Sequence record: OZ035821.1
Origin: Kayfunavirus PDP21P1
Strand: one strand, 5' to 3'
Length of the DNA stretch: 40,079 bases
The notes beneath the pieces are model-generated. The model saw only the letters and a list, made by a program, of their open reading frames with translations. It made no database searches and had not been told where the DNA came from. Positions 343 to 33,347 of this stretch are shown piece after piece (within the stretch, counting starts at the first letter, position 1; the number at the start of each line of letters is the position of its first letter). A program made the translations under genes and the position numbers.

Positions 343-394
343 CACACTACGGGCGGAGACGCTACGTGGATTCTGAGAAATGAGGAGGGCAACT

Positions 395-832
395 ATGCTC
401 GAACTTTTATGTAAAGCAATCCCGTGGCTGGTTGCAGGACTCCTGTTCTGTTCTGGCTACTGGGTGGCAGACAATAAGTGGGAGGCGAAGGTAAACAATG
501 AGTACATCACGAAACTTGAGGCACGAGAGAATCAACGGGCTGCTGTCCAAGGTGAAATCAACAAAGTGTCAGCCGAGTGGCAAGACAAGATGTCCGCGCT
601 GGAAGGCTCTACTGATAGGATTATTGCTGACCTTAACCGTGATAACAAGCGGCTGCGCGTCCGAGTCAACACCTCAGGTCTCACCGAGTCAGATGTCAGT
701 AGATGCTTCCCTAATGGTAGAGTCGAACTACACCCAGAAACTTCTAAAAGTCTTATCCGATTAACTCAGGAGGCAGACCTTAAGGAGAAGGCGCTTCAGG
801 ACACAATAAGGAGGCTCCAAGGTGTTAAGTGA
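395..832 (+). CDS. 18.5: i-spanin (Rz-like), T7 gp18.5 homolog
   Basis: N-terminal transmembrane helix (IPWLVAGLLFCSGYW) and strong similarity to T7 gp18.5 (EGSTDRIIxDLxxDNKRLRVRV). Start moved to ATG 395, which has a GAGGAGG RBS; the track start at 380 lies inside that RBS. Confidence 0.8.
   Translation: MLELLCKAIPWLVAGLLFCSGYWVADNKWEAKVNNEYITKLEARENQRAAVQGEINKVSAEWQDKMSALEGSTDRIIADLNRDNKRLRVRVNTSGLTESDVSRCFPNGRVELHPETSKSLIRLTQEADLKEKALQDTIRRLQGVK
498..764 (+). CDS. 18.7: o-spanin (Rz1-like lipoprotein) embedded in the +1 frame of gene 18.5, T7 gp18.7 homolog
   Basis: Embedded out-of-frame ORF with a signal peptide and lipobox (LTVITSGC). Closely parallels T7 gp18.7 (MSTxRxLR...GCASES...MVSVDxSLMVExN). 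Confidence 0.75.
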   Translation: MSTSRNLRHERINGLLSKVKSTKCQPSGKTRCPRWKALLIGLLLTLTVITSGCASESTPQVSPSQMSVDASLMVESNYTQKLLKVLSD

Positions 833-1259
833 TTACTACAAAGTGGACCCGGCTAGTCCATCCGGTCTGGTCTCCGTTAGGACTGGAAAGCCTGTGGGGA
901 CATTAAGTCGGATGGGATATTGGATAGTACAGACACGAAGTCTAGGCAGTAAGCGGGCCCATCGTGTGATATGGGAACTAACCAATGGTCCTATACCGCA
1001 TGGTATGCAAATAGACCACATCGACAGGAACCCTAGCAATAATACCTTAAGTAACTTACGGCTCGTTACTGCCGCTGAAAACACTTGGAATACTGGTAGC
1101 CATTATGACTCTAAGACAGGAGTGAAGTGCGTTACCCGTCACCAGAATGGTTATAGGATTCAGGTTAAACGCGGGAATGCCTATATGCGAACAACACGTC
1201 CCACTTTAGAGGAGGCTATCGCTGTCCGGGACCTAATGCTGGAGGGACTATATGTCTAA
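822..1259 (+). CDS. HNH homing endonuclease with AP2-like DNA-binding domain
   Basis: Motifs YYKVDPxSPSGLV, [35 protein letters not shown], and a C-terminal GYRIQV...[15 protein letters not shown]2-like segment. GTG start with GGAGG upstream. Absent from the T7 backbone at this position; AT-rich relative to flanks. Confidence 0.75.
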
Positions 1260-3018
1260 GAAAACACCCGCTGAAAGACAGGCAGAAATGGTCCAAAGGA
1301 TGAGGGACGACTTCGTGTTCTTCATCTTCGTTCTCTGGAAAGCACTAAGTCTTCCGGTTCCAACCCGCTGCCAGATAGATATGTGTAAGAAGCTGGCTGC
1401 TGGGGATAATCGCCGCTTCATCCTTCAGGCGTTCCGTGGTATTGGCAAGTCGTTTTTGACCTGTGGCTTTGTGGTCTGGAAGCTATGGAATAACCCAGAC
1501 TTGAAGTTCATGATTGTGTCGGCCTCAAAGGAACGAGCCGATGCGAACTCCATCTTCATCAAGCGAATCATCGACCTCATGCCTCAGCTTCAGGAACTCA
1601 AACCTAAACAGGGGCAGCGAGATGCGGTTATCAGCTTCGACGTGGGACCTGCCAAGCCAGACCACTCACCTTCGGTTAAGTCCGTTGGTATCACTGGTCA
1701 GTTGACTGGTAGTCGTGCTGACATCCTGATTGCCGATGACGTGGAGGTTCCGAACAACTCAGCGACTCAGGCTGCACGAGACCGTCTATCAGAGCTTGTG
1801 AAAGAGTTCGACGCTATCCTGAAGCCGGGAGGTACGATCATCTATCTGGGTACTCCTCAGAACGAGATGACCCTGTACCGTGAGCTGGAAGGTCGTGGGT
1901 ACACCACTACTATCTGGCCCGCTCGTTATCCACGCGACAGGAAGGACTGGCAGTCTTACGGCGACCGTCTGGCTCCTATGCTTCAGGCAGAGCTGGAAGA
2001 GGACCCTGAGTCCTTCTACTGGCGTCCGACTGATGAAGTACGCTTCGATGATACGGACCTGAAGGAACGTGAGCTGTCCTACGGTAAAGCTGGCTTCGCT
2101 CTACAGTTCATGCTTAACCCGAACCTGAGTGATGCCGAGAAGTACCCTCTGAAGCTCCGTGACCTTATCGTAGCCGACTTGGACCCAGCGTCTAGCCCAA
2201 TGGTATACCAATGGCTTCCTAACCCTCAGAACAAGCGTGAGGACGTTCCTAACGTTGGACTCATGGGTGACTCATACCACACGTATCAGACTGTAGGTTC
2301 TGCCTTCAGTTCGTACACCCAGAAGATTCTAGTCATTGACCCTAGTGGTCGTGGTAAGGATGAAACTGGTTATGCGGTACTGTACCAGCTAAACGGCTAC
2401 ATCTTCGCTATGGAAGTTGGCGGTATGCGAGGTGGCTATGAAGACTCTACGCTGGAAGCCTTGGCTAAGATTGGTCGTAAGTGGAAGGTCCACGAATACG
2501 TCATTGAGGGTAACTTCGGTGATGGTATGTACCTTGAGCTATTCAAGCCTGTAGCTTCCCGTATCCATCCTGCGGCTGTAACTGAAGTGAAGAGTAAGGG
2601 TCAGAAAGAACTCCGCATCTGTGACGTTCTGGAGCCTATCATGGGGTCTCACCGACTTATCGTCAACGCTTCTGCTATCGTCCAAGACTACCAGACAGCC
2701 TCTGACAAGGATGGCGTTCGTAACCCTATCTACTCTCTCTTCTACCAGATGACACGTATCTCTCGTGAACGTGGGGCCTTGGCACACGATGACCGACTTG
2801 ATGCGCTGGCTATCGGTGTACAGTTCTTCGTTGAGTCGATGGCTAAGGATGCCAACAAAGGCGAACGTGAAGTCACTGAGGAGTGGCTGGAGGAACAGAT
2901 GGAGAACCCACGTAAAGGCTTCGAGTCCATCCACACTGAGTTCTGGGACAATGGGGTCCGGGTAACTCACGATACGGACGACGAGCTTGGACTAGGGTCC
3001 TACGTTACGTTCCACTAG
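1252..3018 (+). CDS. 19: Terminase large subunit (DNA maturation protein B), T7 gp19 homolog
   Basis: 588 aa. N-terminus [24 protein letters not shown]...[12 protein letters not shown]...[20 protein letters not shown] matches T7 gp19 almost residue for residue; length close to T7 (586 aa). Confidence 0.93.
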
Positions 3019-9093: not shown

Positions 9094-9255
9094 ATGTATC
9101 AGAACACTATCAACTTCGAGCGCATCCGTGAACGTCAGCAGACTGAAGGTTACATTCCTAAGGGCCGTAACGCTCATGACTCCGAGGAAACTAAAAGTCG
9201 CAAGTTGAATAAAGTAAGGAGGGATCGCAGTGAGAAGCGTCATTTCTGTCAGTGA
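9094..9255 (+). CDS. gp1.1-like small basic protein
   Basis: 53-aa hand-found ORF. RKLNKVRRDRSEKR resembles the T7 gp1.1 basic segment (RKLNKTKRDRSHKR) as recalled. Overlaps the start of the next ORF by 26 nt. Confidence 0.45.
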   Translation: MYQNTINFERIRERQQTEGYIPKGRNAHDSEETKSRKLNKVRRDRSEKRHFCQ

Positions 9256-9631
9256 TAGATTCTGGAATAAAGTGGACAAGTCTGGAGAATGTTGGGAATG
9301 GACTGCCTCAAGATTTACTAATGGATACGGGCAGTTTACGATAAACGGAAGACCAATAGGGTCTCATAGATTCGCCTACATGGACACCTACGGTCCTATA
9401 CCTAAAGGCTTATTGGTAAGGCATACTTGCGACAACAGACTTTGTTGTAATCCTTCACATTTATTGTTGGGTACACCACAAGATAATATGAACGATAAGG
9501 TCGAACGTGGTAGACAGTACAGGCCTGAGAGGAAGTATGCTGAGGCTATGATGGTGGGCCTCAAGTATAAGGAGGCAAAAGAACTGTTCGGAATAAGCGA
9601 GACACATTTCTATAGGTTGAAAGGAGCATAA
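9230..9631 (+). CDS. HNH homing endonuclease
   Basis: GTG start with TAAGGAGGG RBS. Motifs CWEWT...NGYGQF, GPIPKGLLVRHTCDNRLCCNPSHLLLGTPQDNMNDK. Same family as the ORFs at 18588 and 32898. Confidence 0.75.
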   Translation: MRSVISVSDRFWNKVDKSGECWEWTASRFTNGYGQFTINGRPIGSHRFAYMDTYGPIPKGLLVRHTCDNRLCCNPSHLLLGTPQDNMNDKVERGRQYRPERKYAEAMMVGLKYKEAKELFGISETHFYRLKGA

Positions 9632-14456: not shown

Positions 14457-14535
14457 GTCTCCATAGCTCAAACGGTAGAGCGGCGGGTCGTTATGGCCTA
14501 TTGCGATTAGGGTTCGAATCCCCGTGGAGACGCCA
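14457..14535 (+). tRNA. tRNA-like element; anticodon arm unresolved
   Basis: Perfect 7-bp acceptor stem (GTCTCCA / TGGAGAC), discriminator G and encoded CCA; canonical D-arm (TA GCTC AAACGGTA GAGC); canonical T-arm (GGG TTCGAAT CCC). The 26 nt between D- and T-arms do not fold into a clean 5-bp stem / 7-nt loop by eye. Possible loop TTGCGAT (anticodon GCG) or GTCGTTA. Confidence 0.45.
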
Positions 14536-16427: not shown

Positions 16428-16470
16428 TCTAGACTCAAGGCCATTCACATCGAGTGGCCTTTATGATTAG
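16428..16470 (+). promoter_or_regulatory. Conserved hairpin (AAGGCCA-N11-TGGCCTT), candidate RNase III site upstream of gene 5
   Basis: Flanks (TAGACTCAAGG ... TGGCCTTTATGATTAGAC) are near-identical to the copies at 298-342 and 9018-9063. Confidence 0.3.
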
Positions 16471-16489
16471 ACTAAACGGAGGATTAACC

Positions 16490-18505
16490 ATGTTTGACCT
16501 TAAGAGTATCTGGGGTTCTGACATCGAGACCAACGGTCTCCTTGATACAGTCTCCCAGTTCCACTGCGGGGTCCTGATTAACGCCGAGTCGAATGAGACC
16601 CTTAAGTATGGGGTAGCTCCGATGGTCGGTATCGTCGGTGGCTTCAAAGAGTATGTGCAGAAGGTTGAAGAGATTGCCGCATCACCTGATGGTATGCTGG
16701 TATTCCACAACGGTATCAACTATGACGTCCCGGCTATAGACAAGCTGAAGCGTCTGTACTTTGGGAAACGCTTTAACTTCCCGAAACACAAGATGATTGA
16801 TACCTTGGTGCTGGGGCGCTTGATGTATCCAAACATTAAGTTCTCAGACATGGGCGCGGTGAAAGCTGGTCGCCTTCCACCTAATATGATGGGACGTCAG
16901 TCTCTTGAGGCTTGGGGTTATCGTCTCGGTGAGATGAAAGGTGAGTACAAACACGATTACGTTGCCAAGTGTAAGGCTGAAGGCATCGAATATAAGGCTG
17001 GGGACGAATGGTTGTTCCCGTCTCAGGAGATGCTGGACTATAACGTTCAAGACGTTGTGGTCACACTGGCGTTGTTCAAGAAGTTCCTGACTGACAAGTA
17101 TTACTTCCAGTCTGAAAAGTTCGCTTTCGACCATATTTATGCGTTGCGTCTGGAACATGATGCTGCGTGGACCTGTGCGAAGATGGAACGTAACGGTTAT
17201 CCGATGAACACCGAGATGGTCGAAGGCTTATATCGTGAACTCACTGTAAAACGTGCAGAGCTGCTGGACAAGCTGCGTTCGACTTTCGGTAGCTGGTATG
17301 CACCGAAGGGAGGCAAGGAGTTCTTCAGGCACCCACGGACAGGAAAGGACCTTCCGAAGTATCCGCGAGTCGTGTATCCTAATGTCGGTGGCATCTTTAA
17401 GAAGCCGAAGAACAAAGCTCAACGCTTAGGTCTGGAGCCTTGCGAGTTCGACTCACGAGACACGATGAAGGGAGCACCATTCACTCCAATCACTTACGTT
17501 GAGTTTAATCCGGGAAGCGGAGACCACTTAGCGAAAGTCCTGATGGAGCGTGGCTGGGAGCCTGTGGACTTCACTGACACCGGGAAACCTGTGGTTGATG
17601 ACGAGACGTTAGAACACGTTAAGTTACCAGACGCAGAGGCTCAGGCTTGCGTAGAGCTGGTCCGTGAGTATCTGGTAGTCCAGAAGCGCATTGGTCAGGC
17701 GGCTGAGGGTAAGAACGCATGGTTGAAACTTGTAGGTCAAGACGGACGTATGCATGGTTCAATCAACCCCTGCGGGGCAGTAACCGGACGTGCGACGCAT
17801 AGTGCACCAAACATGGCTCAAGTCCCGGCTAACGGTGCTCCATATGGTGAGACTTGCCGTGGTGCTTTCGGTGCAGCTTGGAACAAGACGGATGGTAAGC
17901 CAGACCCTTGGATTCAAGTTGGTGTGGATGCCTCAGGTCTTGAGCTTCGTTGTCTGGGGAACCGAGCGGCTCCGTTTGATGGTGGTACCTATGCGAGGAC
18001 TGTGGTCGAAGGTGACATCCACTGGGCCAACGCAGTCAACGCTGGGCTAGCACCTAACGTACCACGCGACAAGTCGAGCCACGACCACGATTCTTTCCGT
18101 AACAACGCTAAGACGTTCATCTATGCGTTCCTGTATGGTGCAGGGGCAGCTAAGATTGGACTGATAGTCGGCGGTGGTAAGAAGGAAGGTTCAGCTCTCA
18201 TGAAGAAATTCATTGAGGGTACACCAGCCATCAAGGACCTCAGGGAAGCTGTGAGTAATACGTTAATCTCAGACTCTAAGTGGGTGGACGGAGAGAACAT
18301 CGTTAAGTGGAAACGCCGTTGGCTGCGTGGACTTGATGGTCGCCGTATCCACATCCGGTCACCCCACTCAGCACTGAACGCATTACTTCAAGGTGACGGT
18401 GCGGTGGTATGCAAGCACTGGATTGTTGAGACTGAGCGTATGCTGGAAGCCGAAGGATATGTCCACGGCTGGGATGGAGACTTTGCGTACATGGCATGGG
18501 TGCAT
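16490..18505 (+). CDS. 5: DNA polymerase, exon 1 (T7 gp5 homolog)
   Basis: Start moved to ATG 16490 (GGAGG RBS; MFDLKSIWGSDIETNGLL parallels T7 MIVSDIEANALL). Thioredoxin-binding loop present (GGIFKKPKNKAQR). Exon ends ...DGDFAYMAWVH, directly followed by TAA. Confidence 0.93.
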
Positions 18506-19103
18506 TAACATCATGGTGCACATTAAATCTGGTGAACTCGGTGAACTCCTAATGGGACAATACCGAGCCAAGCCATAGGGAGGATGTATGAGAGGCAAGA
18601 AGTTAATTCTTGAGGCCACTGAGACTGGCTGCATAATCCCTACGTCACATAAATTGAATAAGGATGGATACTTCCGAAAGAGGACTAACGGTGTCCTTGA
18701 GATGTATCATAGAACTGTATGGATTAAAGCTAATGGTCCAATACCTGACGGTTTCGAAGTAGACCACAAGTGTCGTAATAGAGCTTGTTGCAACGTCGAA
18801 CATCTACAAGTATTAGACCGGGACTCACACTTAGTCAAGACCAACAAAGAGCGATACGCTGCTAGGAAGCTAGAAGCACGAGACTACTGGGTAGAGACTG
18901 GGTGTACTGGAACGAAGTTAGCCGAAGTATTCAATGTGTCGTTCTCAGCCGCCTGTGGGTGGATTAGAGAGTGGAAGGCGTAGAGACTATCCGAAAGGAG
19001 TAGGGCCGTGGGTGAGATTCCCACGTAACCCGAAGCGCCAGACAGTCACCTCAAAGACTGATGATATAGTCCGACACTTCCAGTAATGGGAGAATACAGA
19101 AAG
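18506..19103 (+). mobile_element. Group I intron interrupting the DNA polymerase gene; carries an HNH endonuclease ORF
   Basis: Stop codon immediately after exon 1. Exon 2 restores DELQIACRTQEI...LDTEGKIGPTWKECH, the conserved T7 gp5 C-terminus, in frame. 5' splice site after U18505 with P1 pairing (exon GUGCAU : intron GUGCAC at 18516-18521, U.G at the junction). Intron ends in G19103. Possible P10 (intron CAUC 18509-18512 : exon 2 GAUG). Confidence 0.7.
18588..18983 (+). CDS. Intron-encoded HNH homing endonuclease
   Basis: 131-aa ORF within the intron, in a different frame from the polymerase, with GGGAGG RBS. Motif NGPIPDGFEVDHKCRNRACCNVEHLQVL; same family as the ORFs at 9230 and 32898. 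Confidence 0.8.
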   Translation: MRGKKLILEATETGCIIPTSHKLNKDGYFRKRTNGVLEMYHRTVWIKANGPIPDGFEVDHKCRNRACCNVEHLQVLDRDSHLVKTNKERYAARKLEARDYWVETGCTGTKLAEVFNVSFSAACGWIREWKA

Positions 19104-29619: not shown

Positions 29620-30021
29620 ATGACCAAAGTTTGTTTAACTTGTGGTCTGGAGAAACCAATCACTGAGTTTCACAAACAGGCCACCAAGAAAGACCCTGAG
29701 CGCCGAAAACCTCATTGCAGAAGCTGCTGGTCCAAGGTAAGGAGGGATAGAACACCTGAGCATAATAGGCGATACAACCTGAAGAAATTCTACGGAATAA
29801 CACCTGAGGAGTATGATAAAATGCTTCGTGAGCAAGGTGGGACCTGTGCCATTTGTCATGGTACAGAGACTGTAGGGAGACTAGCTGTAGATCACTGCCA
29901 TTCTACAGGTAGGGTTAGGGGTCTGTTATGCACCAACTGCAATCAAGCTATAGGCAAGCTGAAGGATGACTCTCAGTTGCTTAGGAACGCTATCAACTAT
30001 CTGGAGGTGAACCGTGTGTGA
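29620..30021 (+). CDS. Endonuclease VII-like (HNH superfamily) nuclease, inserted between genes 13 and 14
   Basis: Cys/His-rich motif CAICHG...LAVDHCHSTGRVRGLLCTNCNQAIG, characteristic of the T4 endonuclease VII N-terminal zinc-binding nuclease domain. AAGGAG RBS. Confidence 0.75.
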   Translation: MTKVCLTCGLEKPITEFHKQATKKDPERRKPHCRSCWSKVRRDRTPEHNRRYNLKKFYGITPEEYDKMLREQGGTCAICHGTETVGRLAVDHCHSTGRVRGLLCTNCNQAIGKLKDDSQLLRNAINYLEVNRV

Positions 30022-32897: not shown

Positions 32898-33347
32898 ATG
32901 AAGAACGGGACAGCCAGTGAGAGACTGGCAGAACTGTCAGTAGCTGAAGAGTCTGGCTGTATCCGATTCACAGGCCACTTAGACGGAGAAGGATACGGAA
33001 GGATAATGGTGGCTAGGGTTAAGTATATGGCACATCGTCTCTCCTACTCCATAAATAAGGGGCCAATACCAGATGGCTATGTTGTTAGGCATAAATGTGA
33101 TAATCCATCATGCATAAATCCTGAACACCTTGAAGTAGGAACGCAGGCTGACAACATTGCAGATAAGGTATCCAGAGGCCGACAGGCAAGAGGTAGTGGA
33201 GCAGGCAGAGCTATACTGACAGAGGAATCTGTTAGGGAAATACGCTCCAGTCCATTAAAAGTATCTGAGCTTTCCACCTTATACGGGGTAAGCGTCGTTT
33301 CCATACGAAATATATTGAGGAGAAAGACATGGCAACACGTGGTGTAA
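32898..33347 (+). CDS. HNH homing endonuclease inserted between genes 15 and 16
   Basis: CIRFTGHLDGEGYGRI, GPIPDGYVVRHKCDNPSCINPEHLEVGTQADNIADKVSRGRQ; same family as 9230 and 18588. AAGGAG RBS; AT-rich codon usage. Confidence 0.8.
   Translation: MKNGTASERLAELSVAEESGCIRFTGHLDGEGYGRIMVARVKYMAHRLSYSINKGPIPDGYVVRHKCDNPSCINPEHLEVGTQADNIADKVSRGRQARGSGAGRAILTEESVREIRSSPLKVSELSTLYGVSVVSIRNILRRKTWQHVV

Follow-up and report, generated by a model that had tools for sequence, protein, structure and literature searches.

A probable free-standing homing endonuclease gene between the spanin and large terminase genes of a Kayfunavirus

The open reading frame at 822–1259 of the window, by which we mean the whole analysed stretch of 40079 nucleotides, a Kayfunavirus (K1F-like Studiervirinae) genome, is best read as a free-standing, selfish and dispensable homing endonuclease gene (HEG) of the I-HmuI-like HNH_3 class with an AP2-like domain, which is not required for packaging; we give this reading a probability of about 80%. 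The gene as such is already known, being annotated as an HNH or homing endonuclease in the records of CR44b, CR8, the CHRF phages and the Hafnia phage, and a possible link between the HNH protein and the terminase at this locus has already been raised in print. A sequence-only reading of the same DNA had offered two possibilities, that the gene is selfish or that it has been co-opted for packaging. The first is supported by its sporadic presence among relatives and by four viable isolates that carry deletion scars, whereas the second found no support, as both the HNH family and the terminase family are different from those of the phages in which such a role is known.

The locus and the encoded protein

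The HNH ORF lies on the plus strand, runs from a GTG start to a TAA stop at 1257–1259 and encodes 145 amino acids. A strong Shine–Dalgarno sequence, AAGGAGG (808–814, plus strand), was read from the sequence 7 nt 5′ of the GTG, and the same AAGGAGG precedes the gene 19 start in genomes without the HNH gene, as seen at the junctions of pO2 and T147P5. The neighbouring genes were assigned with Pfam and PHROGs and comprise the small terminase gene (30–293), the Rz-like i-spanin gene 18.5 (380–832, plus strand, stop at 830–832), the T7-type o-spanin gene 18.7 embedded within it (498–764, plus strand) and the T7-type large terminase gene 19 (1252–3018, plus strand; PF22530 at 1.4e-37). The HNH ORF overlaps gene 18.5 by 11 nt and gene 19, whose ATG is at 1252, by 8 nt, so that the sequence-only reading was exact in its coordinates and right about both overlaps. 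It had also described the gene as an insertion relative to T7, where no gene separates the end of gene 18.5 (37348) from the start of gene 19 (37370), and this synteny claim is therefore correct. The ribosome-binding site of gene 19, GGAGGG (1241–1246), and its ATG (1252–1254) both lie within the 3′ end of the HNH ORF (1241–1254, plus strand) and thus appear to arrive with the cassette. At the gathering threshold, Rfam returned no match at the HNH locus.

The identification of the product as an HNH nuclease held up in the homology searches, which could have contradicted it: the protein matches HNH_3 (PF13392) with an E value of 6.7e-21 over residues 44–87 (951–1082, plus strand) and phrog_99, ‘HNH endonuclease’, at 7e-41. 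The matched segment contains a ββα-metal nuclease motif with the catalytic histidine and the metal-binding aspartate and asparagine. Residues Asp65, His66, Asn78 and Asn87 align with Asp74, His75, Asn87 and Asn96 of I-HmuI, and Asp65, His66 and Asn87 are invariant across an alignment of 21 sequences. An AlphaFold2 model built on 21 homologues was confident (mean pLDDT 91), and in a structural search the predicted fold matched that of I-HmuI, to which a PDB sequence search gave a weak match (E 0.06). I-HmuI from Bacillus phage SPO1 (PDB 1u3e) has 23% sequence identity with the window protein; it is intron-encoded, nicks one strand and has a helix–turn–helix C-terminal domain, whereas the window protein is free-standing and has a C-terminal domain that is AP2-like.

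This C-terminal part (residues 104–143; 1131–1250, plus strand) is a predicted DNA-binding domain, modelled as three β-strands (104–107, 110–117 and 120–126) and one helix (129–143). The strands are predicted to form an antiparallel sheet packed on the helix, as in the AP2/ERF fold, which would provide the nuclease with an attached sequence-reading module. The Pfam AP2 profile (PF00847) gave no match at E≤10 with either the whole protein or its C-terminal 49 residues, and the AP2 label consequently rests on the predicted fold; in longer, more distant homologues PF00847 does align to this region. The AP2 domain claimed earlier thus stands by predicted fold and distant homologues and fails by the Pfam profile, and we consider ‘AP2–HNH’ an acceptable name for the protein, its AP2 part being assigned from the model.

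Among four intact alleles of the type found in the window (HEG-a, see below) dN/dS was 0.05–0.09 at dS of 0.09–0.18, and between HEG-a and the second allele, HEG-b, it was approx. 0.25. Such low values indicate that the HNH protein is maintained by selection. Purifying selection would be expected of an actively homing gene and would fit a useful gene equally well, and the protein is probably active as a nuclease.

Distribution among relatives and states of the junction

The comparison of synteny with related genomes that had been proposed with the sequence-only reading revealed a sporadic distribution, the outcome that this reading had listed as counting against a packaging role. A tblastn search found 181 phage records with a terminase at least 95% identical with that of the window. 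HEG-a, defined as at least 95% identity with the HNH protein, occurs in 13 records by tblastn, among them AN17P1, 101118UKE1, TH16, CR44b, ST10/11/16/56, three CHRF phages and Hafnia yong1, and 12 of the 13 align over all 145 residues in one piece. HEG-b, with approx. 65% identity (range 60–80%), was found by tblastn in about 41 records, including the PRF-SP and STP-SP series, CR8 and the PM129 group; with few exceptions it occupies the junction at which HEG-a lies. One or other allele is thus present in about 54 of the 181 records, and approx. 70% of these phages are without the gene. IME177, which has the best-matching terminase (99.3%), is one of those without it; the gene is also absent at this site from pO2, T147P5, K1F and T7, and HEG-a is found in only two of the 30 genomes that are closest to the window over 3100–28000. 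Of nine IMG/VR loci whose terminase is at least 89% identical, two have the HNH gene, and across 80 terminase loci of this database a full-length homologue upstream of the terminase was seen only in L006, L007 and L020. Presence and absence therefore vary between close relatives at one fixed site beside a conserved gene.

Homologues with approx. 50% identity occur in more distant phages. One lies at 2589–3023 of L020, directly upstream of and overlapping a large terminase gene whose product is 69% identical with that of the window; another, at 2001–2420 of the Aeromonas phage vB_AhaP_PT2 locus (L091, OM716005), is likewise directly upstream of and overlapping the terminase gene and lacks a GenBank annotation. 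OR786095 (Staphylococcus phage MBBL139) and PV615262 (Acinetobacter phage vB_Aba_01KA) are labelled with hosts that do not belong to the Enterobacteriaceae, yet both records closely match the Kayfunavirus of the window, one having HEG-b at the same site and the other 94% backbone identity; mislabelled hosts or contamination are the likely explanation of these labels.

Four states of the 18.5/19 junction were distinguished: HEG-a, HEG-b, a deletion scar and an empty site. HEG-b also encodes 145 residues and has approx. 55% nucleotide identity with HEG-a over most of its length, but the last 75 nt (1182–1256, plus strand) are 91–100% identical between the alleles and are partly kept in the scars. 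In KM02, Penshu1 and vB_EcoP-R1, positions 845–1228 are missing, a 384-bp in-frame deletion between two direct repeats of GGACC (left copy 845–849, right copy 1229–1233, both plus strand) that mark its endpoints; it leaves a stub of 17 codons, or 18 in R1 owing to a 3-nt insertion. Ro45lw lacks 841–1205 (365 bp) and has a separate 1-nt deletion. The retained 3′ segment accordingly begins at 1229 in the first three phages and at 1206 in Ro45lw. As the scars hold the first 7–8 and the last 10–17 codons of the HNH ORF, they are losses and not unoccupied sites. All four phages, with their two types of deletion, are plaque-forming isolates, and Ro45lw has been reported to grow with a burst of 55 (PMC9866566). 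With reading frames derived by hand, every sequenced scar (L001, L003, L087 and L088) retains an open mini-ORF from the GTG at 822 to a TAA overlapping the gene 19 ATG.

At the empty sites of pO2 and T147P5, gene 18.5 ends in AAGGAGG and the GTG of gene 19 follows directly (…AAGGAGGTTGCGTGGCGAATAAGAAAACACC…), the gene beginning GTG GCG AAT AAG... after this upstream Shine–Dalgarno sequence. Scans of IMG/VR, in which this subclade is thinly represented, matched neither the exact scar junction nor the exact empty-site junction. We also looked for a sharp mosaic boundary at the HNH gene and found none: the blocks of identity are patchy throughout, and the flanks do not co-segregate with the gene. 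In the i-spanin/o-spanin region (401–600 of the window, the N-terminal half of the i-spanin) there are two alleles, with 65–71% and 88–98% identity to the window respectively, and as these do not co-segregate with the presence of the HNH gene either, they point to frequent recombination at a scale of a few hundred bases.

Homing, expression of gene 19 and packaging

With so many close relatives that lack the gene or carry a deletion within it, it is very unlikely that the gene is needed for DNA packaging. If it is an HEG, its enzyme would, in a mixed infection, nick or cut the HEG-less allele near the 18.5/19 junction or in the conserved 5′ part of gene 19, gene 19 being the probable target region. 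The T7-type recombination machinery would then repair the break from the HEG-carrying genome, copying the HEG and short flanks into the recipient. The incoming cassette would appropriate the ribosome-binding site from which gene 19 is translated where the site is empty, and its 3′ end would supply a replacement, GGAGGG, together with an ATG, so that the essential terminase would still be expressed. The near-identical last 75 nt of the two alleles, like the mosaic flanks, are consistent with frequent exchange at the right-hand junction. The homologues of approx. 50% identity at the terminase genes of divergent T7-like phages suggest long-lived site specificity of the HEG lineage; an alternative reading of the copies in L020 and PT2, which precede the terminase gene, is a functional association of long standing.

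A different view of the cassette is that it is selfish in origin but now acts in cis, translation of the ORF through its stop codon setting terminase expression with no need for nuclease activity; deletions that upset this translation would then reduce fitness. We regard this as unlikely. In its favour, the ORF contains at its 3′ end both the ribosome-binding site and the ATG of gene 19; so does the near-identity of the last 75 nt speak for it in alleles that are only approx. 55% identical elsewhere, and the authors of the Hafnia phage Ca study speculate that the fragment affects expression of the terminase or the lysin (PMC8861465). In addition, all sequenced scars keep the mini-ORF open, in Ro45lw through the combination of the 365-bp and the separate 1-nt deletion, and translation into the gene 19 start may thus be under selection, although on the present sequences these cases are too few to tell and three scars do not distinguish a selected open frame from chance. 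However, the dN/dS of 0.05–0.09 extends over the whole ORF, which shows selection on the protein and not merely on its translation, and where the site is empty gene 19 is expressed although no such ORF precedes it.

The Hafnia phage Ca (vB_HpaA_yong1) provides data on plaque phenotype that bear on this question. Its description includes ORF 48, the overlaps with a ‘lysin’ gene and the terminase gene, and a spontaneous 397-bp deletion (PMC8861465); large plaques contained more than 98% complete genomes and small plaques more than 98% genomes with the deletion, and HK97 gp74 is cited by its authors (PMC8861465). This correlation hints at a fitness role for the gene or its DNA and is the only point in favour of one, but the plaque data are compatible both with loss of the protein and with a cis effect on the translation of gene 19. 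It seems to us a long shot that the cassette, being translationally coupled to gene 19 or by means of a nick near the terminase gene, increases the output of terminase or the processing of concatemers. The record itself (L086, MK610268) has an extra T at approx. 1375–1380 relative to all other HEG-a alleles (GTCTCCGTTTAGG compared with GTCTCCGTTAGG); the frame is shifted as a result, so that the 143-residue ORF of the paper starts in another frame and its first 18 residues are unrelated. Either this T is an artefact of sequencing, or the very phage of the plaque-size study has an inactivating mutation. A TGGA microhomology at 1344 and 1741 of the same locus has the right spacing for the 397-bp deletion, and we would guess that it marks the endpoints.

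Co-option of the HNH protein as a terminase accessory like HK97 gp74, providing or stimulating cleavage in concatemer processing and packaging, appears highly improbable. It would accommodate the location of the gene between the small and large terminase genes and its overlap with gene 19, the requirement for a terminase-adjacent HNH protein in cos cleavage of HK97-like phages (Kala et al. 2014, as cited in PMC8861465 and PMC10448857) and the enrichment of Hafnia phage Ca deletion variants in small plaques (PMC8861465). Against it, HK97 gp74 is an HNH protein of family PF01844, whereas the window protein matches PF13392 only and a pairwise BLASTP comparison of the two was not significant (E 0.13); the partner terminase is of the T7 type (PF22530) and has no match to Terminase_1, the family linked to gp74-type HNH proteins by Kala et al. 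(2014), as cited in PMC8861465. The gene is absent from approx. 70% of the phages whose terminase is at least 95% identical, including IME177 at 99.3%, and from T7 and K1F, the four isolated scar-bearing phages are viable, and terminases that are 99–100% identical over long blocks work in phages lacking the HNH gene. A comparison of 11 terminase sequences, from which T147P5 was left out as it was out of register, revealed no residues beyond residues 1–2 that separate carriers from scar-bearing or empty-site phages. Moreover, gp74-type proteins partner with a different terminase family in phages with cos packaging, whereas T7-like phages such as that of the window have T7-type terminal repeats, and gp74-type genes are conserved within their own phage group whereas the present gene is sporadic and deletable. 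None of the three marks of a gp74-type protein was thus found, namely homology with gp74, a Terminase_1 partner in a cos phage, and conservation with indispensability.

Finally, an inactive, decaying HEG remnant is scarcely credible. HEGs are said, in Goddard and Burt's cycle, to degenerate once fixed, the gene has been lost from several relatives, and in the Hafnia yong1 record its frame is shifted by +1 beyond codon 17. In the window, however, the ORF is intact and its catalytic residues are conserved; dN/dS stays under 0.1 among alleles that have diverged by up to 18% at synonymous sites, and all but one of the HEG-a records are full-length in one piece.

Related systems and other nuclease genes of the window

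The closest counterparts of the putative HEG are gene 3.8A of CR44b and ORF 48 of the Hafnia phage Ca, which are the same gene at the same site with 96–98% amino acid identity, are annotated as HNH or homing endonuclease and share the overlaps with the spanin and terminase genes. Nothing essential differs, apart from the +1 frameshift that replaces the first 18 residues of ORF 48. HNH proteins with an AP2 domain are an established HEG family, and phage HEGs cluster beside essential genes, including that for the terminase (Barth et al. 2023, PMC10448857). With the family of Magnani et al. (2004) and the IPA-HNH HEGs of the Vibrio phage ICP1, the window gene has in common an N-terminal HNH and a C-terminal AP2 part, a free-standing location beside essential genes including the terminase gene, and a patchy distribution (PMC10448857). 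It differs in having a shortened AP2 part that does not reach the Pfam AP2 threshold, and an HNH part that is canonical HNH_3, a profile from which the ICP1 proteins have diverged too far to match. With the gp74-type proteins of HK97 it shares its small size and a location beside the terminase genes, and the two kinds of case are described as hard to tell apart by bioinformatics alone (Barth et al. 2023, PMC10448857).

The window contains at least five free-standing nuclease genes. Three further HNH_3 ORFs, at 9230–9631 (133 residues), 18588–18983 (131 residues) and 32898–33347 (149 residues), are all on the plus strand, of the Cys-rich zf-His_Me type and distant kin of the 822–1259 protein. 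Together with an endonuclease VII-like ORF of 133 residues between the gp13 and gp14 genes (29620–30021, plus strand), they indicate a genome that is generally rich in mobile nuclease genes. A targeted search with Rfam RF00028 gave a group I intron match at 18496–19093 (plus strand) of 35.8 bits, below the gathering score of 50, with an E value of 3.5e-7; it encloses the HNH ORF at 18588–18983 and lies just past a DNA polymerase ORF of 684 residues (16454–18508). For K1F an intron-plus-HEG has been reported in the DNA polymerase gene (PMC4925675), and the match at 18496–19093 looks like this arrangement. Rfam (37 bits) and ARAGORN agree on a tRNA-Thr with anticodon CGU at 14457–14535 (plus strand), shortly before the primase/helicase gene; a tRNA gene was unexpected in a T7-like genome.

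An HNH gene beside the terminase gene of a T7-like phage should hence not be given a packaging role by analogy with HK97. With its two alleles, two kinds of scar and empty sites, the 18.5/19 locus forms a natural series for the study of the HEG life cycle, and the same series may be useful for marker exclusion between co-infecting therapeutic coliphages. Were the doubtful effect of the cassette on the terminase to prove real, it would explain both the small plaques of the Hafnia phage Ca and the open mini-ORFs of the natural scars, and the gene would be an HEG caught part-way to domestication in a T7-type packaging module.
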